Positions 24,016 through 51,077 of a stretch of 64,000 bases of DNA are shown here, piece after piece. A program made the position numbers and the translations under genes. Source of the DNA: Escherichia coli (lineage in GTDB: Bacteria > Pseudomonadota > Gammaproteobacteria > Enterobacterales > Enterobacteriaceae); the NCBI RefSeq assembly GCF_044324785.1, contig NZ_CP172127.1; one strand, given 5' to 3'. Positions within the stretch are counted from its first letter, which is position 1; the number at the start of each line of letters is the position of its first letter. Below the pieces are notes generated by a model that had not been told where the DNA came from, made no database searches, and saw only the letters and a program-made list of their open reading frames with translations.

Positions 24016-24074
24016 TCATTAATCGGCAACTTGGAGTTGCCGCCAAATTGCTAATATCGAGTACGTTGCTTCAT

Positions 24075-24173
24075 GCCGGATGCGGCGTATACGCCTTATC
24101 CGGCCTACAAGATCCAAAGAAATCAGTAAATTGCAGCACACATTGTAGGCCTGATAAGCGTAGCGCATCAGGC
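24075..24173. repeat. REP/BIME element (two inverted REP units)
   Basis: GCCGGATGCGGCGTATACGCCTTATCCGGCCTACA and the inverted TGTAGGCCTGATAAGCGTAGCGCATCAGGCA match the classic E. coli REP (PU) consensus. Confidence 0.8.
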
Positions 24174-24214
24174 AATTTCTCGTTGGTCGTCACTTTTGAA
24201 ATCAAACTTGACGA

Positions 24215-29976: not shown

Positions 29977-30723
29977 ATGCATTATGCCGTTGTCGTCATG
30001 CTTGAACTGCTTTGCTGTATTCACGCTTATCGCTCCGGACAAGAGCGATACTGGATTTTTATTATCTTCTGTTTTCCGGTGATTGGCTGCGTGGCGTATT
30101 TCGTCATGGTTATGCTGCCTGAAACGGGCGCTGACCGTCACGGGCGTACTTTGCTGATGCGCCTGCAGGACAAAATCAGCCCGGAACGCCACCTGCACAA
30201 ATTAACCGAAGAGCTGGCGATTGCCGAGACCAATCAAAACCATTATGCGTTAGCTAACGAACTGGCGCGCCTTGGGCGTTATCACGAAGCCGTTCCCCAT
30301 TATCAGCAGGCGTTAAGCGGAATTTTCGCCCATGAAGCGGTAATGATGTTAAGCCTGGCGCAGGCGCAATTTGCTATTCAGGAGTTCGCCGCCTGTCAGC
30401 AGACGCTGGAAGATGTGATGCGTTATAACCCCGATTTTCAGTCGGCAGACGGGCATTTGTTATTTGCCAGAGCGTTAGCCGCACAAGAAGAATACGCTGA
30501 TGCGGAAAGTGAGTTTGAAGTGTTGGTTTCTTATTACCCCGGCCCGCAGGCGCGTATTTACTATGCGGAAATGCTGGCGAAAATGAGTCGGTTACGTGAA
30601 GCCAACGAGCAGTATGTTGCTGTGGTTGATACGGCTAAACGCTCAAGAGCGCATTATAGAAAACACTACCGGGAATGGATTAAGACCGCCAATGAACGGT
30701 TGAAGCAGAGTGTGGTGCAATGA
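29977..30723 (+). CDS. Hypothetical membrane protein: N-terminal two-TM domain resembling the PLD/cardiolipin-synthase N-terminal domain, plus a C-terminal TPR-like helical domain
   Basis: 248-aa ORF with two hydrophobic helices and a W...FP.IG...Y pattern (WIFIIFCFPVIGCVAYFV), followed by alanine-rich repeats with TPR-like periodicity. I do not recall a gene between livF and ugpB in K-12. Confidence 0.6.
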   Translation: MHYAVVVMLELLCCIHAYRSGQERYWIFIIFCFPVIGCVAYFVMVMLPETGADRHGRTLLMRLQDKISPERHLHKLTEELAIAETNQNHYALANELARLGRYHEAVPHYQQALSGIFAHEAVMMLSLAQAQFAIQEFAACQQTLEDVMRYNPDFQSADGHLLFARALAAQEEYADAESEFEVLVSYYPGPQARIYYAEMLAKMSRLREANEQYVAVVDTAKRSRAHYRKHYREWIKTANERLKQSVVQ

Positions 30724-39188: not shown

Positions 39189-39683
39189 TTATGAACAACT
39201 GTCCATGATTTCGTTTAAGAATGAAGAGAAATCACTAAACGAACTGAATATATTTTCGGTGCCAATATTATCTCTAATTTCAAAAAAGTTACTTTTAATG
39301 TCATAAGTAAATATTGAAATGCTATCATCACCGATCACTAACCGTTCTTGTAGATCAGGGTTTATGAAATCATCATTATTTCTATAAAATTCATTTACGG
39401 CAAAAAGGTTTTTAACTGAAGGTTCTGGAATCGAGAGGCTAAATAATCGTAATCCATTAGCTTCGAATCCATCCATTGCTCTTAAAAAAGTAAGATAATC
39501 AGGTTGATTCTTAAAAAGAATACTAACTTCATTACATAACTTCTCCAGGCAATTAGTTGAATTAGAATTAAATTCTATTTGGATTATACTTTCAATAAAT
39601 GATTCCTTGAGCGGTGCTTCAAATGGATGGTCTAAATCATTCATCATTTTTTTTAATTTATTTATTTGGGTTTTAGTCATCAT
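39189..39683 (-). CDS. yrhA: YrhA, uninterrupted; candidate immunity protein for the upstream Hcp-nuclease
   Basis: 164-aa ORF, low GC, immediately downstream of yhhZ with an ATGA stop/start overlap. In K-12 I recall this gene as a pseudogene disrupted by IS1; no IS1 sequence is present here. Confidence 0.6.
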   Translation of the reverse strand: MMTKTQINKLKKMMNDLDHPFEAPLKESFIESIIQIEFNSNSTNCLEKLCNEVSILFKNQPDYLTFLRAMDGFEANGLRLFSLSIPEPSVKNLFAVNEFYRNNDDFINPDLQERLVIGDDSISIFTYDIKSNFFEIRDNIGTENIFSSFSDFSSFLNEIMDSCS

Positions 39684-40858
39684 TTTGTGGGTTCCATAAT
39701 ATTTTTCATGAGAGGATAAATTGAGCCAGATGGAATGGCCCAGGGAGTGATTTTGCTTTCACCTACTAATATTCCCTTAGCTATTCGTGATTGCATGTTA
39801 GTAAAAACTTTATGATATGGTTCGTTTTCGATTAATACTAAATTTTCGAAATCATTAGTACCACCATCATCTAGAGATAGTTTATGGTGAACATTATAAT
39901 TTAGAGGAACATTGCCCTTTCTCATTCTTAAAAGGTCTTCGGCGTTGAATCTTCCAGATGCTTCGGAGGTTTTTGCAAGTTTGATAAGAAAATTTTTTCT
40001 TACAGTTTTATTAAACTCCTTTCGTAAGTTAGCTAAGTCTTTTGAAGGTCTCTTAATGTATATTATTTCTATTATGTCTATACCATCAAGAAGTTTTTGT
40101 TGACCTCTAAGTTTGCCTAAGTAACTATTTATTTCTGTATATGTATCAACATTAGAACGCTTTGTTAAAAGAATAGATGCTGTTGCTATCGCTATGCCCG
40201 CTGTTTTTTCATTTAGTATTTGATCATAGCCTTTGATTGCATCTCCACCCAGTTTTTCCGCAGTATCTCTGAATCCTTCAATGTTCCCATTGTATACGCC
40301 ACCAGCAGCAAGTAGCCTGCCAACAGCTTCGCTGTTTAACGTTTTTAAACCATTATTTGTTTTGTTTTTTGAATTTGGTAAAAACAAGCGGTTATAATTT
40401 TCAGGGAGTGCCAAATAGCTGAACTCGGTGTTAGTGATAAGATGTTGGCAGAGGATAAATTCATAACTAACAGTTATTGTTTCTGTATCCAGCTGGTTTT
40501 CAATGATCTGGTGATGAATAGCCGATAAAAAAGCGCCTCTTAGTTGTATATAATAATACTTTTCCCATCTACCAAATCTATTTATTCGATAGAAGTCAAA
40601 TCCCATAAATAATTGTTCATTATTGTTAATGGAATTAATAAATAATGGAGTGCTTTTATCAATTAATTTACAAAATGTTATACCATGGAACTGTGAACCA
40701 AGCCCCGTATTAGAAATACTATTTAAGAGTGAGAATGTAAATATTTCATTCTCATGCCCGCTCTGCCAGCGATTACCTATAGATTCAGTAGTCCCACAAC
40801 CTGCGGAGATGCTTCCTTGTTGTTCTCCCGTTACTGTCAGATAAATAATATTACTCAT
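39680..40858 (-). CDS. yhhZ: Hcp (T6SS tube protein) fused to a C-terminal HNH / colicin-DNase-like nuclease domain
   Basis: 392 aa. The N-terminal 120 aa is Hcp-like; the C-terminus carries an HNH pattern, NVHHKLSLDDGGTNDFENLVLIENEPYH (His-His codons at 39884..39889 on the minus strand). Low-GC gene. Confidence 0.75.
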   Translation of the reverse strand: MSNIIYLTVTGEQQGSISAGCGTTESIGNRWQSGHENEIFTFSLLNSISNTGLGSQFHGITFCKLIDKSTPLFINSINNNEQLFMGFDFYRINRFGRWEKYYYIQLRGAFLSAIHHQIIENQLDTETITVSYEFILCQHLITNTEFSYLALPENYNRLFLPNSKNKTNNGLKTLNSEAVGRLLAAGGVYNGNIEGFRDTAEKLGGDAIKGYDQILNEKTAGIAIATASILLTKRSNVDTYTEINSYLGKLRGQQKLLDGIDIIEIIYIKRPSKDLANLRKEFNKTVRKNFLIKLAKTSEASGRFNAEDLLRMRKGNVPLNYNVHHKLSLDDGGTNDFENLVLIENEPYHKVFTNMQSRIAKGILVGESKITPWAIPSGSIYPLMKNIMEPTK

Positions 40859-45659: not shown

Positions 45660-47000
45660 GTGACTACATTAACGCTTGTTTTAACAGCAGTAGGGTCTGT
45701 TTTACTGCTGCTGTTTTTAGTCATGAAGGCGCGTATGCACGCTTTCCTGGCTTTGATGGTGGTGTCCATGGGGGCTGGCCTTTTTTCCGGTATGCCGCTC
45801 GATAAAATCGCAGCGACGATGGAAAAAGGGATGGGAGGCACCCTCGGCTTTCTGGCGGTGGTTGTCGCCCTGGGAGCCATGTTTGGCAAGATCTTACATG
45901 AAACCGGCGCAGTCGATCAGATTGCCGTCAAAATGCTCAAATCCTTCGGTCACAGCCGCGCGCATTATGCCATCGGCCTTGCGGGGCTGGTCTGTGCGCT
46001 GCCGTTGTTCTTTGAAGTGGCGATTGTTCTGCTGATTAGCGTTGCTTTCTCAATGGCGCGCCACACCGGTACGAACCTGGTGAAGCTGGTAATCCCATTA
46101 TTCGCAGGCGTGGCGGCAGCGGCTGCGTTCCTGGTGCCGGGGCCTGCGCCAATGCTGCTGGCATCGCAGATGAACGCCGACTTTGGCTGGATGATCCTGA
46201 TTGGCCTGTGTGCGGCAATTCCGGGAATGATTATTGCCGGGCCGCTGTGGGGTAATTTCATCAGCCGCTACGTGGAGTTGCATATTCCTGACGACATCAG
46301 CGAACCACATCTCGGTGAAGGCAAAATGCCGTCCTTCGGATTCAGCCTGTCGCTGATCCTGTTGCCACTGGTGCTGGTGGGGCTGAAAACCATTGCCGCG
46401 CGCTTTGTGCCGGAAGGCTCTACCGCTTACGAATGGTTCGAGTTTATTGGTCATCCGTTTACCGCGATTCTGGTTGCTTGTCTGGTAGCAATTTATGGCC
46501 TGGCAATGCGTCAGGGTATGCCAAAAGACAAAGTGATGGAAATTTGTGGTCACGCGCTGCAACCGGCGGGGATCATTCTGCTGGTGATTGGTGCAGGCGG
46601 CGTGTTCAAACAGGTGCTGGTTGACTCTGGCGTAGGTCCGGCACTGGGCGAAGCGTTAACCGGCATGGGCCTGCCGATTGCCATCACCTGCTTCGTGCTG
46701 GCAGCTGCAGTGCGCATCATTCAGGGTTCTGCCACCGTTGCCTGTTTAACGGCGGTGGGACTGGTGATGCCGGTTATTGAACAACTGAACTATTCCGGAG
46801 CGCAAATGGCGGCGCTGTCGATTTGTATCGCCGGTGGTTCGATTGTTGTCAGCCACGTTAACGACGCCGGTTTCTGGTTGTTCGGTAAATTTACCGGCGC
46901 GACTGAAGCCGAAACACTGAAAACCTGGACCATGATGGAAACCATCCTCGGCACTGTCGGTGCTATCGTTGGGATGATTGCGTTCCAACTGTTGAGTTAA
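45660..47000 (+). CDS. gntU: Low-affinity gluconate permease GntU (GntP family)
   Basis: 446-aa polytopic transporter with GTG start, 4 nt after the gntK stop. Confidence 0.9.
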   Translation: MTTLTLVLTAVGSVLLLLFLVMKARMHAFLALMVVSMGAGLFSGMPLDKIAATMEKGMGGTLGFLAVVVALGAMFGKILHETGAVDQIAVKMLKSFGHSRAHYAIGLAGLVCALPLFFEVAIVLLISVAFSMARHTGTNLVKLVIPLFAGVAAAAAFLVPGPAPMLLASQMNADFGWMILIGLCAAIPGMIIAGPLWGNFISRYVELHIPDDISEPHLGEGKMPSFGFSLSLILLPLVLVGLKTIAARFVPEGSTAYEWFEFIGHPFTAILVACLVAIYGLAMRQGMPKDKVMEICGHALQPAGIILLVIGAGGVFKQVLVDSGVGPALGEALTGMGLPIAITCFVLAAAVRIIQGSATVACLTAVGLVMPVIEQLNYSGAQMAALSICIAGGSIVVSHVNDAGFWLFGKFTGATEAETLKTWTMMETILGTVGAIVGMIAFQLLS

Positions 47001-47011
47001 TTACTGCGACA

Positions 47012-47055
47012 AATTACTGCGAGCTTGCTCGCAGTAATTCATTTCTCTTTTCTCC
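47012..47055 (+). terminator. gntU intrinsic terminator
   Basis: AATTACTGCGAGC / GCTCGCAGTAATT near-perfect palindrome followed by CATTTCTCTTTTCTCC. Confidence 0.7.
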
Positions 47056-47139
47056 TGTCTTCATCTTTTTGATCTCTCTCGCAAATTTACCTGCTAATAA
47101 TCCGTTCTAATCACTGCCTAAAGATCGCAGGAGATAAAG

Positions 47140-49236
47140 ATGGAAAAGCACGGAGCTGAATTGCTTTTACAGCGGATGTTAGGAAATACCACCGCTACTT
47201 TCAGGGAAGGGCAATGGGAAGCCATAGATGCAGTGGTTAATCAGCGGCGAAAACTGCTGGTTGTACAGCGCACCGGCTGGGGGAAAAGTGCCGTGTACTT
47301 CATCGCCAGTAAAATCTTCCGAGATCGCGGCGCTGGCCCGACAATTATCATCTCTCCTTTGCTTGCCCTGATGCGTAACCAGGTTGCCGCCGCTGAACGG
47401 TTAGGTATTACGGCTGAAACGTTGAATTCTACAAACAGGGAAGAATGGCAGCGCATTAGCGATAAGTTGCTGCAAGGTGAGGTCGATTGCTTGCTGGTTT
47501 CCCCGGAACGATTGGCAAACCAGGACTTTATCGAAACGGTTTTATATCCTATAGCCGATCGTATTGGCTTGCTTGTGGTCGACGAGGCGCACTGCATCTC
47601 TGATTGGGGCCACGATTTTCGCCCGGATTACCGACGTATATTAGATATTTTGCGCCAACTGCCTGCGAATACCCCTGTTCTGGGTACAACCGCGACAGCG
47701 AATAACCGTGTTGTTGAGGATATCCGTCAGCAATTGGGTGACATTGTGATTCAGCGTGGAACGCTGGCTCGCGAAAGTTTGGCGCTTGATGCCTTAGTCT
47801 TAGGAGAACAGTCATCCCGTCTGGCATGGTTAGCAACGGTTATCCCTCAGTTTTCCAAATCGGGAATTGTTTATACCCTGACGACTCGCGATGCTGAACT
47901 TGTCGCCGAGTGGTTAAGGAAAAATGGTATCAGTGCATTTGCTTACTACAGCGGCGTGACTTGTGAAGGCGCGGAAGATTCTAATACTGCCAGGGAATAT
48001 CTGGAGCAGGCACTGCTGGCAAATAAAATCAAAGTGCTGGTCGCGACGACGGCATTAGGTATGGGGTTTGATAAACCTGATTTAGGTTTCGTCATTCATT
48101 ATCAGATGCCGGGGTCTATTGTCGGTTACTACCAACAGGTGGGGCGTGCCGGTCGTGCTATAGATTCCGCAGTTGGCATATTGCTTTGTGGTGGTGAAGA
48201 CCGCGCTATTCATCAATTCTTCCGTGAAAGCGCCTTTCCTGCGGAGGCGCAAATTCATGAAATACTCAACGTACTTAGCGAGAATGACGGTCTTACCCTA
48301 CGAGGCATTGAACAACGGACGAATCTTCGTTATGGGCAAATAGAAAAAGCACTGAAATTATTGGTAGCGGAAAATCCATCGCCTGTGGTGTATACCGAGA
48401 AATTATGGCGCAGAACTATCGTCAGTTTTTCTCCTGATCATGAACGAATTAACCATTTGATGAATCAGAGAAAAAGTGAGCTGGCAGACGTTGAAAGCTA
48501 TATCACGACCAAGGAGTGCAAAATGCAATTTCTGCGCCGTGCACTCGATGAGCCAAGTGCCGAACGTTGTGGTAAATGTAGCAGTTGTCTTCAGCATCCG
48601 TTATTGTCGCCCGACATTGATAGCGGCTTACTCCATGCGGCAAATTTATTTATTAAACACGCTGACCTGCCGTTAAATCTCAATAAACAGGTGGCAGCTG
48701 GGGCTTTTACGCAATACGGATTTAAAGGGAACTTGCCTGCGGGTTTACAAGGATCTACGGGGCGAATCCTTTCTCGTTGGGGAGATTCCGGGTGGGGAAA
48801 GCAGGTAGCACAGGAGAAAAAAACGGGGCGCTTCAGTGATGAGCTGGTAGAAGCATGTGCGGAAATGGTTCGCCAACGCTGGAATCCGCATCCTGAACCA
48901 ACCTGGGTATGCTGCGTTCCTTCATTAAGGCACCTCGACCTGGTTCCTGATTTTGCCCGGCGACTGGCGGCGAAACTTGGCTTACCTTTTATTGATGCCA
49001 TTGAAAAAGTCGTGGACAATCCACCGCAGAAAATGCAGCAAAACCGTTTTCACCAGTGTCAAAATCTCGACGGGGCGTTTGTGATTACCCCTCCTTTGAT
49101 GCCAGGTCCGGCGTTGCTGGTTGACGATATCGTGGATTCTGCATGGACGCTGACAGTTCTGACAGCACTGTTACGCCAGGCAGGTTGCCCGACGGTTTAT
49201 CCTCTTGCCCTTGCTTCTACCTCGGTAAAAAATTGA
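47140..49236 (+). CDS. RecQ-like SF2 DNA helicase fused to a C-terminal ComF/GntX-type phosphoribosyltransferase-fold domain
   Basis: 698 aa. Walker A TGWGKS (47272..47289); DEAH box with RecQ signature VVDEAHCISDWGHDFRPDY (DEAH at 47581..47592); GTTATA; YYQQVGRAGR; Cys cluster CKMQ...CGKCSSC. The C-terminal 180 aa carry the PRTase motif LLVDDIVDSAWTLT (Asp-Asp codons from 49123). AGGAG Shine-Dalgarno 8 nt upstream. Confidence 0.85.
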   Translation: MEKHGAELLLQRMLGNTTATFREGQWEAIDAVVNQRRKLLVVQRTGWGKSAVYFIASKIFRDRGAGPTIIISPLLALMRNQVAAAERLGITAETLNSTNREEWQRISDKLLQGEVDCLLVSPERLANQDFIETVLYPIADRIGLLVVDEAHCISDWGHDFRPDYRRILDILRQLPANTPVLGTTATANNRVVEDIRQQLGDIVIQRGTLARESLALDALVLGEQSSRLAWLATVIPQFSKSGIVYTLTTRDAELVAEWLRKNGISAFAYYSGVTCEGAEDSNTAREYLEQALLANKIKVLVATTALGMGFDKPDLGFVIHYQMPGSIVGYYQQVGRAGRAIDSAVGILLCGGEDRAIHQFFRESAFPAEAQIHEILNVLSENDGLTLRGIEQRTNLRYGQIEKALKLLVAENPSPVVYTEKLWRRTIVSFSPDHERINHLMNQRKSELADVESYITTKECKMQFLRRALDEPSAERCGKCSSCLQHPLLSPDIDSGLLHAANLFIKHADLPLNLNKQVAAGAFTQYGFKGNLPAGLQGSTGRILSRWGDSGWGKQVAQEKKTGRFSDELVEACAEMVRQRWNPHPEPTWVCCVPSLRHLDLVPDFARRLAAKLGLPFIDAIEKVVDNPPQKMQQNRFHQCQNLDGAFVITPPLMPGPALLVDDIVDSAWTLTVLTALLRQAGCPTVYPLALASTSVKN

Positions 49237-50438
49237 TGAATCTTTCAGCCAATGCACAAGCGACTCTCCTGCTAACCAGCGATTTTTCTCGCGCGGCGGC
49301 GAGTGAGTATAAACCTCTTAGTAATAGTGAATGGGGGAAGTTTGCATTATGGCTGAAGCACCAACGTATCAGTCCCGCCGATCTTCTGGTACCGCAACCG
49401 CAAGAGAAACTTACAGGCTGGAGCGATCCGCGTATTTCTCAGGAGCGTATTCTTGGCTTGCTGGCGCGTGGTCATAGTCTGGCGTTGGCGGTAGATAAGT
49501 GGCAACGCGCCGGATTATGGATCTTAACCCGCGGAGATGCCGATTATCCCGTTCGCTTGAAAAACCGATTGCGAACGGATGCTCCTCCCGTTTTATTTGG
49601 CTGCGGGAATAAAGCATTATTGCAAGCGGAAGGTATGGCGATTGTTGGCTCGCGAGATGCTCCGACTGACGATTTGCGCTATACCCAACAACTGGCAGCG
49701 AAACTGGCCCAACAGGGGATTTGCGTTATCTCTGGTGGTGCGCGAGGTATTGATGAATGTGCAATGGCGTCGGCACTGGAGGCCGGGGGAACTGCCGTTG
49801 GCGTATTAGCTGATAGCTTGTTAAAAACGAGCACGTTAGTGAAATGGCGTGAAGGGCTTATAGCAGGCAACCTGGTGTTGATTTCACCGTTTTACCCAGA
49901 GGTACGTTTCACTGTCGGCAATGCGATGGCGCGGAATAAATATATTTATTGCCTTGCTGAAAGCGCAATGGTTGTACGTGCGGGAATGACCGGTGGAACG
50001 ATAACCGGAGCGATGGAGGCGTTAAAACATCAGTGGCTGCCTGTTCTGGTTAAACCAAATCAGGATGTGCAATCAGCCAATTCACGATTAGTAGAAAATG
50101 GGGCGTCATGGAGTGCTGAACAGGCTGAGAATGTGACGATCAGACTGCCAGATGTTCCTGGGCTGATGTATGACAGAGCACTCCGTAACGCTCAACCAGA
50201 ATTGTTTTCGCTGCTCGAAGATGACGCAAATTACGCAGTAATGCCCGCGCATACCCCTGTCGATTTTTATCAACTCTTTGTGGCGGAACTGGCGATCCTT
50301 GCAAAGGAATCGATAAGTATTGAAAGGCTGGCGTCTTGTACTGGTTTAACCATCGAACAAATTAGTGTGTGGCTGAACCGCGCAGAAGAAGAGGGAAGGG
50401 TTATCCGATTGGGCGAAGGTCATTATCAGTTCAGGTAA
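49236..50438 (+). CDS. DprA/Smf-like (SLOG Rossmann) protein with a C-terminal winged-helix-like region
   Basis: DprA core motifs AIVGSRDAPTDDL, ISGGARGIDECAM, NAMARNKYIYCLAE and VVRAGMTGGT. Start chosen at the ATG sharing one base with the upstream TGA stop (400 aa); an in-frame ATG at 49143 would give 431 aa. Confidence 0.8.
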   Translation: MNLSANAQATLLLTSDFSRAAASEYKPLSNSEWGKFALWLKHQRISPADLLVPQPQEKLTGWSDPRISQERILGLLARGHSLALAVDKWQRAGLWILTRGDADYPVRLKNRLRTDAPPVLFGCGNKALLQAEGMAIVGSRDAPTDDLRYTQQLAAKLAQQGICVISGGARGIDECAMASALEAGGTAVGVLADSLLKTSTLVKWREGLIAGNLVLISPFYPEVRFTVGNAMARNKYIYCLAESAMVVRAGMTGGTITGAMEALKHQWLPVLVKPNQDVQSANSRLVENGASWSAEQAENVTIRLPDVPGLMYDRALRNAQPELFSLLEDDANYAVMPAHTPVDFYQLFVAELAILAKESISIERLASCTGLTIEQISVWLNRAEEEGRVIRLGEGHYQFR

Positions 50439-50440
50439 TA

Positions 50441-50478
50441 AAACAGGTGCCGCGTCTGGTTGTGTGCAGCACCTGTTT
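50441..50478. terminator. Hairpin between the DprA-like gene and convergent yhgN
   Basis: AAACAGGTGC / GCACCTGTTT 10-bp inverted repeat with an 18-nt loop, between two convergent stop codons. Confidence 0.45.
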
Positions 50479-50483
50479 GAACC

Positions 50484-51077
50484 TTACCCCTTCATCCACA
50501 TTCGAATCCCGTCGAGGAACATCTGGGTTGCCATCATCACCAGAATCAATCCCATCAGGCGTTCAAGTGCATTCACCCCTTTCTCGCCGAGCAGACGTAA
50601 AAATAGCGAAGACTGTAGCAGGATGACAAAGGTGCCACCCCAGGCCAGCAGCAGAGCAATTACCAGATGTCCCATCTGATTCGGGTACTGATGAGACAAC
50701 AACATCAGCGTGGCGAGAATAGTCGGCCCGGCGACTAACGGAATTGCCAACGGCACGATAAACGGCTCTTCACCTGCCGGAAGCCCGCTGCTATTTCCTG
50801 AAGCACTGGGGAAAATCATCTTAATGGCGATCAGAAACAGAATGATGCCGCCAGAAATGGAGACGGTTTCTGCCCGCAGGCTAAGAAATGCCAGAATTTT
50901 CTCACCCGCAAACAGGAACACCAGCATCACCAGGAGAGCAATAAGCAACTCTCGCACCATGATTGCCCGCCGTCTTTTCGGTTCAGTATGTTTCAGTACG
51001 GACATGAAAATAGGTAGGTTTCCGAGCGGATCCATAATCAGGATCAATAAAACTGCTGCAGAAATGATTTCATTCAT
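50484..51077 (-). CDS. yhgN: MarC-family inner-membrane protein YhgN
   Basis: 197-aa hydrophobic ORF adjacent to asd. Confidence 0.85.
   Translation of the reverse strand: MNEIISAAVLLILIMDPLGNLPIFMSVLKHTEPKRRRAIMVRELLIALLVMLVFLFAGEKILAFLSLRAETVSISGGIILFLIAIKMIFPSASGNSSGLPAGEEPFIVPLAIPLVAGPTILATLMLLSHQYPNQMGHLVIALLLAWGGTFVILLQSSLFLRLLGEKGVNALERLMGLILVMMATQMFLDGIRMWMKG

Follow-up and report, generated by a model that had tools for sequence, protein, structure and literature searches.

What kind of protein results when a RecQ-like helicase ends in a domain resembling a phosphoribosyltransferase (PRTase), and what such a domain would do when tethered to a helicase, are the questions raised by an open reading frame at positions 47140-49236 of a 64,000-nucleotide stretch of an Escherichia coli chromosome (contig NZ_CP172127.1; hereafter the window). 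According to the ORF list and its translation, the frame lies intact on the plus strand, starts with ATG and encodes 698 aa plus a stop codon. An initial sequence-only reading, made from the letters and the translations, had described it as an unusual fusion of a RecQ helicase core, a zinc cluster and a C-terminal PRTase fold. The analysis presented here identified the frame as rqlH (psyrT), which opens the two-gene rqlHI/psyrTA operon (Table 1). The whole explanation, in which rqlH/psyrT encodes a four-part helicase-PRTase protein acting as a toxin that is checked by RqlI/PsyrA, is held at a probability of roughly 0.9.

Table 1. Genes, protein modules and hairpins of the rqlHI locus, with positions in the window
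Feature	Position	Strand	Basis
Perfect hairpin with 13-bp arms, then a T-rich tract	47012..47039	+	Terminator scan, inverted repeat, K-12 junction
rqlH / psyrT coding sequence	47140..49236	+	ORF list, translation, PADLOC PsyrT match
SF2 helicase core of RecQ type with two RecA-like lobes, aa 1-363	47140..48228	+	Pfam, BLASTP, PDB, Foldseek
Winged-helix-like insert (probable), aa ~364-430	48229..48429	+	AF2 secondary structure, weak Pfam wHTH matches
RecQ-type zinc-binding module, aa ~434-484	48439..48591	+	Pfam RecQ_Zn_bind, BLASTP, conservation
Type I phosphoribosyltransferase-fold domain resembling ComFC, aa ~495-698	48622..49233	+	
rqlI / psyrA, DprA/SLOG-like partner (antitoxin), 400 aa	49236..50438	+	PADLOC, Pfam
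Hairpin with 13-nt arms, 92% complementary	50441..50478	.	Inverted repeat, K-12 junction

Domain architecture of the 698-aa protein

The N-terminal part was assigned to the RecQ family by several searches. Pfam identified DEAD (aa 23-194, E 4.9e-25) and Helicase_C (aa 239-340, E 4.2e-13) domains, and the Walker A motif GWGKS (aa 46-50, nt 47275-47289), the DEAH box DEAHCISDWGHDFRPDY (aa 148-164, nt 47581-47631) and QQVGRAGR (aa 332-339) were located within them. By BLASTP, aa 5-339 aligned with E. coli K-12 RecQ at 38% identity (E 3e-57), and the RecQ-family subfamily model TIGR00614 (NCBIfam) scored 252.8 bits, above its cut-off of 219.8. A PDB sequence search matched the N-terminus to the cores of RecQ, BLM, RECQ1 and WRN, and a Foldseek search with the full-length AF2 model (pLDDT 90.7) ranked RecQ catalytic cores first (E 1e-28), ahead of every other structure for the N-terminal ~500 residues. 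Among 40 full-length homologues, K49 was invariant and D148 was conserved in at least 90%. The RecQ motif set and helicase core noticed from the letters were thereby borne out.

The same holds for the RecQ-type cysteine cluster. Four cysteines arranged as CX16CX2CX2C, the spacing shared with the zinc site of E. coli RecQ, were found at C460, C477, C480 and C483 (nt 48517-48588), and Pfam RecQ_Zn_bind matched aa 443-484 (E 1.4e-3) as well as 30 of the 40 homologues at E <= 0.1. In a second BLASTP HSP, between aa 423-487 and RecQ 347-407, these cysteines lined up with the zinc-site cysteines of RecQ, and each of the four is retained by 90% or more of the full-length homologues. Because the homology to RecQ, the aligned cysteines and the residues kept across the 40 homologues coincide, the listed motifs are not attributable to chance.

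Between the helicase and zinc modules, the BLASTP alignment revealed 84 residues in RqlH where RecQ has 18, an excess of ~66 residues that was termed the 'RqlH-specific linker' in 2012 (PMC3378886). In the AF2 model, this insert has three helices (369-381, 387-393, 398-410), after which comes a beta hairpin (416-419/422-425). The Pfam wHTH matches to it were weak (MarR_2 at 373-410, E 0.19), as were those to IclR, DprA_WH, GntR or HTH_5 in a few of the 40 homologues. Judged from the predicted secondary structure, a winged-helix-like module probably sits before the zinc module and not after it. The earlier statement that the protein lacks a canonical winged-helix plus HRDC tail stands in that Pfam returned zero matches to RQC and HRDC, both in the 698-aa protein and in the 40 homologues; it needs amending in that a winged-helix-like module is probably present, upstream of the zinc module. 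This module had gone unnoticed in the sequence-only reading.

In place of RQC and HRDC, RqlH carries a domain with the PRPP-loop motif LLVDDIVDSAWTLT (aa 659-672, nt 49114-49155; D663 at 49126-49128). L660, D662, D663, S667 and T670 were invariant in the 40 full-length homologues, and loop position 668 is Ala here and Gly or Arg in most homologues. The domain displays the five-stranded core of the type I PRT fold and a PRPP loop in which an acidic pair precedes a small/hydroxyl-rich turn. The single-sequence match to Pfam Pribosyltran was weak (E 8.7e-3), a PDB sequence search with the C-domain alone gave nothing significant (best E 0.25), and PRPP-loop proteins were reached from this domain only with a family profile search. 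No solved PsyrT/RqlH structure was found, the PDB sequence search returning RecQ-family cores for the N-terminus only. The C-terminal motif noticed from the letters is confirmed, and a PRT-fold domain in the place of the winged-helix/HRDC tail of RecQ is supported. Its likeness to ComFC and GntX (YhgH) is one of fold and motifs only: ComFC (H. pylori structure 7P0H, PMC9005727) is a stand-alone protein of ~190-230 aa with its own N-terminal zinc finger, whereas the RqlH domain is fused to a helicase, follows a RecQ-type zinc module and scores far below the GntX equivalog cut-off (15.2 bits vs 304).

Relatives of the C-domain were surveyed for the fusion. Among the best 150 representatives at 50% identity, 53 also matched the helicase core, including all of those with at least 550 aa; the remaining ones were 109-455 aa long, 37 matched the linker/zinc segment, and many of these short representatives are probably gene fragments.

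Family membership, partner gene and chromosomal site

The PADLOC PsyrT model PDLC03928 matched the 698-aa protein with E = 0 and 1067.8 bits, the alignment running end to end (aa 3-697 on profile positions 5-687 of 689), and full-length homologues with 65-74% identity were found in many Proteobacteria. The psyrT/psyrA names are those used by Sberro et al. 2013 and Millman et al. 2022. When the pair in the window was compared with RqlH/RqlI of the extraintestinal pathogenic (ExPEC) E. coli strain F11 (Russell & Mulvey 2015, PMC4670107) by length and residue numbering, RqlH had 698 aa and RqlI 400 aa in both, K49, D148 and D663 of the DIVD motif carried equal numbers, and the two genes form one operon in one species; at this level of comparison, the window locus shows nothing beyond allelic differences from the published E. 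coli RqlHI/PsyrTA. Since the fusion is the published rqlH/psyrT of the RqlHI/PsyrTA module, its detection amounts to a correct rediscovery of something known: the architecture has been known since 2012, the genetics of the E. coli gene pair since 2015, and the family is listed in the PADLOC and DefenseFinder catalogues. The sequence-only reading thus assigned the domain fusion correctly from raw sequence; that the fusion represents a described and widespread family had escaped it.

The domain order of E. coli RqlH is the same as that of M. smegmatis RqlH (MSMEG_5935; Ordonez, Unciuleac & Shuman 2012, PMC3378886), namely a RecQ-like ATPase, a linker, a tetracysteine zinc domain and a ComF-like PRTase without HRDC, and the two proteins are 41% identical along their whole length (PMC4670107). 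The 2012 study, which mapped these domains and noted that non-K-12 E. coli carry RqlH, demonstrated a DNA-dependent ATPase and 3'-5' helicase activity of the M. smegmatis protein for which the C-domain was not needed (PMC3378886). Unlike in E. coli, M. smegmatis rqlH has no RqlI partner (PMC4670107), nor has its product been reported to be toxic. Most Gram-positive RqlH homologues are likewise without RqlI (PMC4670107), and a toxin-antitoxin label is therefore unfit for the whole family.

In the window, the rqlI start codon, ATG at 49236, shares a single base with the stop codon of rqlH (TGATG, read from the sequence). The PADLOC PsyrA model PDLC03927 matched with E 8.3e-201, starting from residue 32 of a longer ORF (49143..50438), and RefSeq annotates a 431-aa version of the protein. 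Pfam identified DNA_processg_A at residues 89-292 (E 3.9e-50) together with SLOG cluster4. This DprA-like gene had not been recognized as a toxin-antitoxin-like partner in the sequence-only reading.

The operon fills the gap between gntU and yhgN, which in K-12, where rqlHI is absent, is a 56-bp spacer; comparison of the junctions indicated that 3483 bp cleanly replace it. Among 5426 complete E. coli genomes, the operon was detected in 1650 (~30%), at a single chromosomal site and with a DNA identity of 95-99.9% across the carriers, reaching 99.9% between the window locus and annotated E. coli chromosomes, and it had no match on E. coli plasmids. A mobile-element origin was rejected, as there was no integrase or IS, no plasmid copy and no flanking direct repeat except an 11-nt duplication adjoining the gntU terminator. 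The neighbours are the housekeeping genes gntRKU, yhgN, asd and glgBXCA, and no defence island surrounds the pair.

Proposed mechanism and competing explanations

The published genetics of the E. coli pair (PMC4670107) bear directly on function. The two genes are co-transcribed, RqlH is genotoxic without RqlI, and RqlI binds and neutralises it. From the study of K49A, D148A and D663A mutants, the PRTase pocket with its DIVD motif proved to be needed for toxicity, which is abolished by D663A and by individual conservative substitutions in the PRPP pocket; toxicity requires the PRTase domain, which alone does not suffice. Deletion of rqlHI caused no fitness or repair defect.

In the explanation that we favour, the helicase core, the winged-helix-like insert, the four-cysteine zinc module and the ComFC-like PRT-fold domain follow one another in this order, and the RecQ-like core works as an ATP-driven 3'-to-5' DNA helicase. 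On this view the harmful part is the PRTase-fold domain, acting through its PRPP-binding pocket; left unchecked, it leads to DNA stress with SOS induction, filamentation, a raised mutation rate and growth arrest. Two checks are proposed, the first being the active helicase module of RqlH itself and the second the co-translated DprA-like RqlI/PsyrA, which binds RqlH. With toxicity restrained by both, rqlHI behaves as a large, atypical toxin-antitoxin module, and its homologues serve as an anti-phage system. PRPP is presumably the ligand of the PRT-fold domain, and the acceptor may be a free base, a nucleotide or DNA. The literature searched up to mid-2026 reported no PRTase activity or acceptor substrate for RqlH/PsyrT; for PsyrTA, PsyrT, PsyrA, RqlH and RqlI it comprised surveys and the papers cited here, with no other mechanistic or structural work. 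The interest of the operon lies in its carriage by nearly a third of complete E. coli genomes and in the attenuation of ExPEC in animal models when the partner gene is lost.

A chemical extension of this mechanism was put forward by Russell & Mulvey 2015 (PMC4670107). The helicase would bare ssDNA, and PRPP would serve the tethered PRT-fold domain for the phosphoribosylation of a base in DNA, or of a base or nucleotide located at the fork, which we consider an unlikely course of events; it is similarly doubtful that the resulting DNA lesion or modification would normally be resolved with the help of RqlI. If true, it would constitute DNA-directed phosphoribosyltransferase chemistry not described before. 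The suggestion in the sequence-only reading that PRPP or nucleotide chemistry is coupled to unwinding had been made as speculation in the same paper (discussion, Fig 10).

That abortive-infection phage defence is the main role of rqlHI in E. coli is a real possibility, to which we give somewhat less than even odds. The helicase or its DprA-like partner would sense phage DNA or replication intermediates, RqlI would be titrated away, and the PRTase domain would poison DNA or nucleotide metabolism so that phage replication is blocked. PADLOC classes both genes as PsyrTA, which is listed as a defence system; the homologue from Bacillus sp. FJAT-29814 was verified as defensive (Millman et al.), and psyrA could not be deleted (a psyrA deletion could not be transformed; Millman et al. 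preprint). The locus is also accessory, given its distribution in E. coli and its absence from K-12. Further support comes from the sister system ShosTA, a PRTase toxin with a DprA-like antitoxin that defends via DNA damage and repair. ShosT, which is related to RqlH, binds PRPP and has no known acceptor; unlike RqlH, it has no helicase, its PRT domain being joined to one of pyrophosphatase type, and ShosA reportedly acts via RecA without binding the toxin, whereas RqlI co-precipitates with RqlH (PMC11961720, PMC12961424). Against this reading, a clone of the same locus from E. coli STEC 1299 showed no defence ('observed defense = x', Millman et al. Table S2). This 3485-bp clone begins as the window does at ~47003, and over the first 93 residues its PsyrT has one difference from that of the window. 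PsyrTA of E. coli NILS69 likewise gave no detectable protection, in its native host or in K-12, and rqlHI stands alone among housekeeping genes. Because STEC 1299 and NILS69 show no protection, the defence role of the E. coli locus is putative. A defensive function would add a purpose to the favoured toxin-partner explanation and does not contradict it.

It is improbable that RqlHI is instead a DNA-processing machine comparable to ComFA (helicase), ComFC (a PRT-fold ssDNA handler) and DprA, in which the PRT-fold domain binds ssDNA, PRPP or nucleotides serve as a regulatory ligand without chemistry, and toxicity is a by-product of unbalanced ssDNA handling. The fold of the C-domain and the DprA-like partner recall these proteins; however, RqlH has neither the ComFC zinc finger nor a GntX score near the cut-off, no repair defect follows from deletion, and E. 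coli was not naturally transformable in the published assays, in which the authors detected no transformation (PMC4670107). The loss of toxicity upon conservative changes in the PRPP pocket also argues against this reading.

Very unlikely in our view is a selfish addiction module that brings no benefit to the host and is kept by post-segregational killing and vertical descent. The behaviour of RqlHI is toxin-antitoxin-like, the double deletion has no fitness phenotype (PMC4670107), and psyrTA was picked up by a shotgun-cloning toxin-antitoxin screen. These points are countered by the fixed chromosomal site, the lack of E. coli plasmid matches and the junctions without a mobile-element signature, by the size of the two proteins, which is very great for such a module, and by the conservation of the family across phyla with invariant catalytic-type residues and one homologue that defends.

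Finally, an ordinary RecQ paralogue, or DpdF, the helicase of a Dpd cluster for 7-deazaguanine modification of DNA, has a negligible chance of being the correct assignment and was rejected, because the secondary matches from these models fail the curated cut-offs (RecQ equivalogs TIGR01389, 296.3 vs 640.2 bits, and PRK11057, 225.4 vs 1015 bits; DpdF, 148.9 vs 550 bits, with the PsyrT model scoring far above every DpdF model) and the gene context is without dpd genes, in a protein lacking RQC and HRDC.

Expression signals flanking the operon

The simple sigma-70 scan gave no plus-strand site from gntU to rqlH, and its overall counts were at shuffle level. A ribosome-binding site, AGGAG, precedes rqlH at about 47129-47133, and a 10-nt complement to it lies at 47048-47057. 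A structure sequestering the ribosome-binding site was dismissed as chance, because the fold of 47040-47160 had a z of -1.14 and 22 of 200 shuffles were equally stable. The upstream hairpin in Table 1, directly 3' of the gntU stop, is probably the gntU terminator and bounds the 3.48-kb insert on the left. The downstream hairpin, situated between the stop codons of the convergent genes rqlI and yhgN, is probably a bidirectional terminator that marks the right edge.

Identity and domain architecture of RqlH

The sequence-only reading had described the product of 47140-49236 (+) as a RecQ helicase core joined to a zinc cluster and a C-terminal PRTase fold, and the fusion ORF was recovered at this position with all the motifs quoted. 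The gene is the known rqlH (psyrT), in the place where it usually lies in E. coli; the fold had been assigned correctly, and the fusion was already known. RqlH matched the PADLOC PsyrT model along its full length (aa 3-697 against positions 5-687 of the 689 in the profile; E = 0, 1067.8 bits), and the PADLOC PsyrA model matched the ORF downstream (E 8.3e-201). In NCBIfam, RqlH cleared the cut-off of TIGR00614, which covers the RecQ family broadly (252.8 vs 219.8 bits). Its scores were far short of the cut-offs for DpdF (149 vs 550 bits) and for the RecQ equivalog (296 vs 640 bits), and both assignments were rejected. Pfam detected DEAD and Helicase_C, together with weak matches to RecQ_Zn_bind (aa 443-484, E 1.4e-3) and Pribosyltran (aa 605-683, E 8.7e-3).

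Features of the rqlHI locus, in window coordinates or RqlH residues
Feature	Position	Strand	Remark
Left boundary hairpin	47012-47039		perfect; after gntU
rqlH/psyrT ORF	47140-49236	+	uninterrupted; ATG start; 698 codons
Walker A GWGKS	RqlH aa 46-50		motif in translation
DEAHCISDWGHDFRPDY	RqlH aa 148-164		motif in translation
QQVGRAGR	RqlH aa 332-339		motif in translation
Four cysteines	RqlH 460, 477, 480, 483		position in translation
LLVDDIVDSAWTLT	RqlH aa 659-672		motif in translation
rqlI/psyrA long ORF	49143..50438		PsyrA profile begins at residue 32
rqlI ATG	49236		residue 32 of long ORF; first base is last base of rqlH stop (TGATG)
Right boundary hairpin	50441-50478		between convergent rqlI and yhgN stops

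The RecQ-type core was borne out by the 38% identity of aa 5-339 to K-12 RecQ in BLASTP, and by Foldseek, in which the confidently predicted full-length structure (pLDDT 90.7, pTM 0.87) ranked RecQ catalytic cores on top (E ~1e-28; TM-score 0.70, target-length normalised). A second HSP aligned aa 423-487 with RecQ 347-407 and set C460, C477, C480 and C483 opposite RecQ cysteines, which confirmed the RecQ-like cluster, with the spacing CX16CX2CX2C common to both proteins. The helicase and zinc blocks are separated by 84 residues in RqlH, whereas only 18 separate them in K-12 RecQ. Inside this gap, aa 369-425 of the model form three helices and a beta hairpin, and the segment of aa ~364-430 (48229-48429), termed the 'RqlH-specific linker' in a 2012 paper (PMC3378886), is probably a winged-helix-like module: these elements are predicted with high confidence, and Pfam returned weak wHTH matches only. 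This module would precede the zinc module, whereas the winged helix of RecQ follows it.

None of 40 full-length RqlH homologues matched RQC or HRDC; K49, L660, D662, D663, S667 and T670 were invariant among them, and C460, C477, C480 and C483 nearly so. At residue 668 (49141-49143), which gives the window protein the PRPP loop DSAWT, Gly occurs in 25/40 and Arg in 12/40 of the aligned sequences, and Ala in the query alone.

For the C-terminal domain, a search of 1.84 billion representatives yielded 1657 matches at E <= 1e-3 (761 at E <= 1e-10), from which 41 relatives of 38-59% identity were aligned. The structure of aa 484-698 predicted from this alignment had a pLDDT of 94.9 and a pTM of 0.90; the family profile matched the PRPP loops of PRPP synthetase and HGPRT in the PDB (best E 2.7e-7) and aligned with E. 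coli YhgH/GntX (probability 94.7%) across the motifs N-L-x-x-A-F and VDD-h-h-x-(S/T)-x-x-T; and Pfam Pribosyltran was found in 39/42 domain sequences (E <= 0.1). These results upheld the PRTase fold, and a standard winged-helix/HRDC tail devoid of PRTase similarity was not found, so the domain interpretation stands.

Six representatives of 913-1720 aa (homologues P0131, P0205, P0219, P0233, P0239 and P0262) combine the helicase, the linker/zinc segment and the PRT fold with several hundred extra residues, so RqlH-like modules are also found as components of larger multidomain proteins. Shigella sonnei RqlH (among homologues P0002-P0013) appears in truncated forms of 594-657 aa (91-92% identity), in agreement with the published insertion element of S. 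sonnei 53G, which splits the helicase and the PRTase region apart.

Insertion site and partner gene

The near-identical strain N3 has the gene order gntR-gntK-gntU, 'RecQ family ATP-dependent DNA helicase', 'DNA-processing protein DprA', yhgN (opposite strand), asd and glgBXCA. In K-12 MG1655 the gntU and yhgN stop codons lie 56 bp apart, and in the window 3483 bp (47001-50483) with rqlH and rqlI stand in place of this spacer. No mobile-element signature was found at the insert, and the G+C content of the two genes is 49.7% vs 52.7% for the whole window. Of 5426 complete E. coli genomes, 1650 have the 3.3-kb segment at >=95% identity (top match 99.9%), in every one of them on the chromosome. 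At 46999-47039, precisely at the insert's left edge in the comparison with K-12, lie two copies of the 11-nt direct repeat AATTACTGCGA, 13 nt apart; the repeat shares bases with the gntU stop and with the terminator hairpin's left arm, so that two alternative hairpins are possible.

RefSeq genomes annotate the partner ('DprA') as 431 aa from 49143, overlapping rqlH by 94 nt. Counted from the downstream ATG, the product has 400 aa, as published for RqlI, and this length and the PsyrA profile point to that ATG as the probable start. The resulting one-base overlap suggests translational coupling. This shorter product of 400 aa matches DprA strongly over aa 89-292 (E 3.9e-50) and SLOG as well, and shows a weak HTH match at its C-terminus.

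Mechanism and the phage-defence label

The published account of the RqlH mechanism is the best supported. M. smegmatis RqlH has DNA-dependent ATPase and 3'-5' helicase activities for which its C-domain is not needed, and RqlH was noted in non-K-12 E. coli strains (PMC3378886). In E. coli F11, Russell and Mulvey (2015; PMC4670107) reported that RqlH (698 aa) and RqlI (400 aa) co-precipitate and are co-transcribed, and that RqlH lacking RqlI causes SOS induction, filamentation, mutagenesis and growth arrest. Toxicity was lost on deletion of the PRTase domain (aa 509-690), D663A or DIVD663EVME; the PRTase domain by itself was not toxic; and helicase-dead K49A and D148A were harmful, with just partial rescue by RqlI. 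K49, D148 and the D663-DIVD motif occupy identical positions in the window protein. In this account the RecQ-like helicase bears an effector of PRT fold that needs its PRPP pocket to be genotoxic, and both the DprA-like partner and RqlH's own ATPase restrain it. The ligand, acceptor and natural trigger are inferred. The related ShosT binds PRPP in crystals and needs it for toxicity, with no acceptor known (PMC11961720, PMC12961424), and ComFC binds PRPP, NMPs and ssDNA with no known catalysis (PMC9005727). The literature searched to mid-2026 yielded no paper on the mechanism or structure of PsyrT/RqlH, and the residual interest of the gene lies in the chemistry of its PRT-fold domain.

The P. 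syringae orthologues were found as the PsyrTA toxin-antitoxin pair (Sberro et al., 2013), and PsyrTA (RqlHI) was listed as an anti-phage system (Millman et al., 2022). Table S2 of the latter (bioRxiv 10.1101/2022.05.11.491447) holds two constructs: SG128 from Bacillus sp. FJAT-29814, the only verified homologue ('observed defense = v'), and SG127 from E. coli STEC 1299 ('x'). The clone in SG127 is 3485 bp long, corresponds to ~47003-50487 and opens with the window's sequence from ~47003 (the first 63 nt hold 2 mismatches); among the first 93 residues of its PsyrT, one differs from the window RqlH. In a separate study, PsyrTA of E. coli NILS69 gave no protection in its native host or K-12. Toxin-antitoxin-like behaviour is thus demonstrated for this locus, and phage defence is not. 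In catalogues the E. coli locus is entered as a defence system despite the SG127 'x'.

Other loci in the window

Between livF and ugpB, a 248-aa ORF (29977-30723, +) with hydrophobic N-terminal segments and a helical-repeat-like remainder occupies a spot where N3 has a Phd/Doc toxin-antitoxin pair, so that core genes here seem to flank another small variable slot. A further strain-variable spot, 24016-24210, holds ~190 bp vs ~750 bp in N3, where a DUF1778 gene and an N-acetyltransferase remnant adjoin panM. Between yhhY and yrhB, 39189-40858 (-) contains a 392-aa ORF that the N3 annotation calls a type VI secretion effector of the Hcp1 family (tssD), followed by yrhA; this may be an extended Hcp with a toxin domain, together with an immunity gene.
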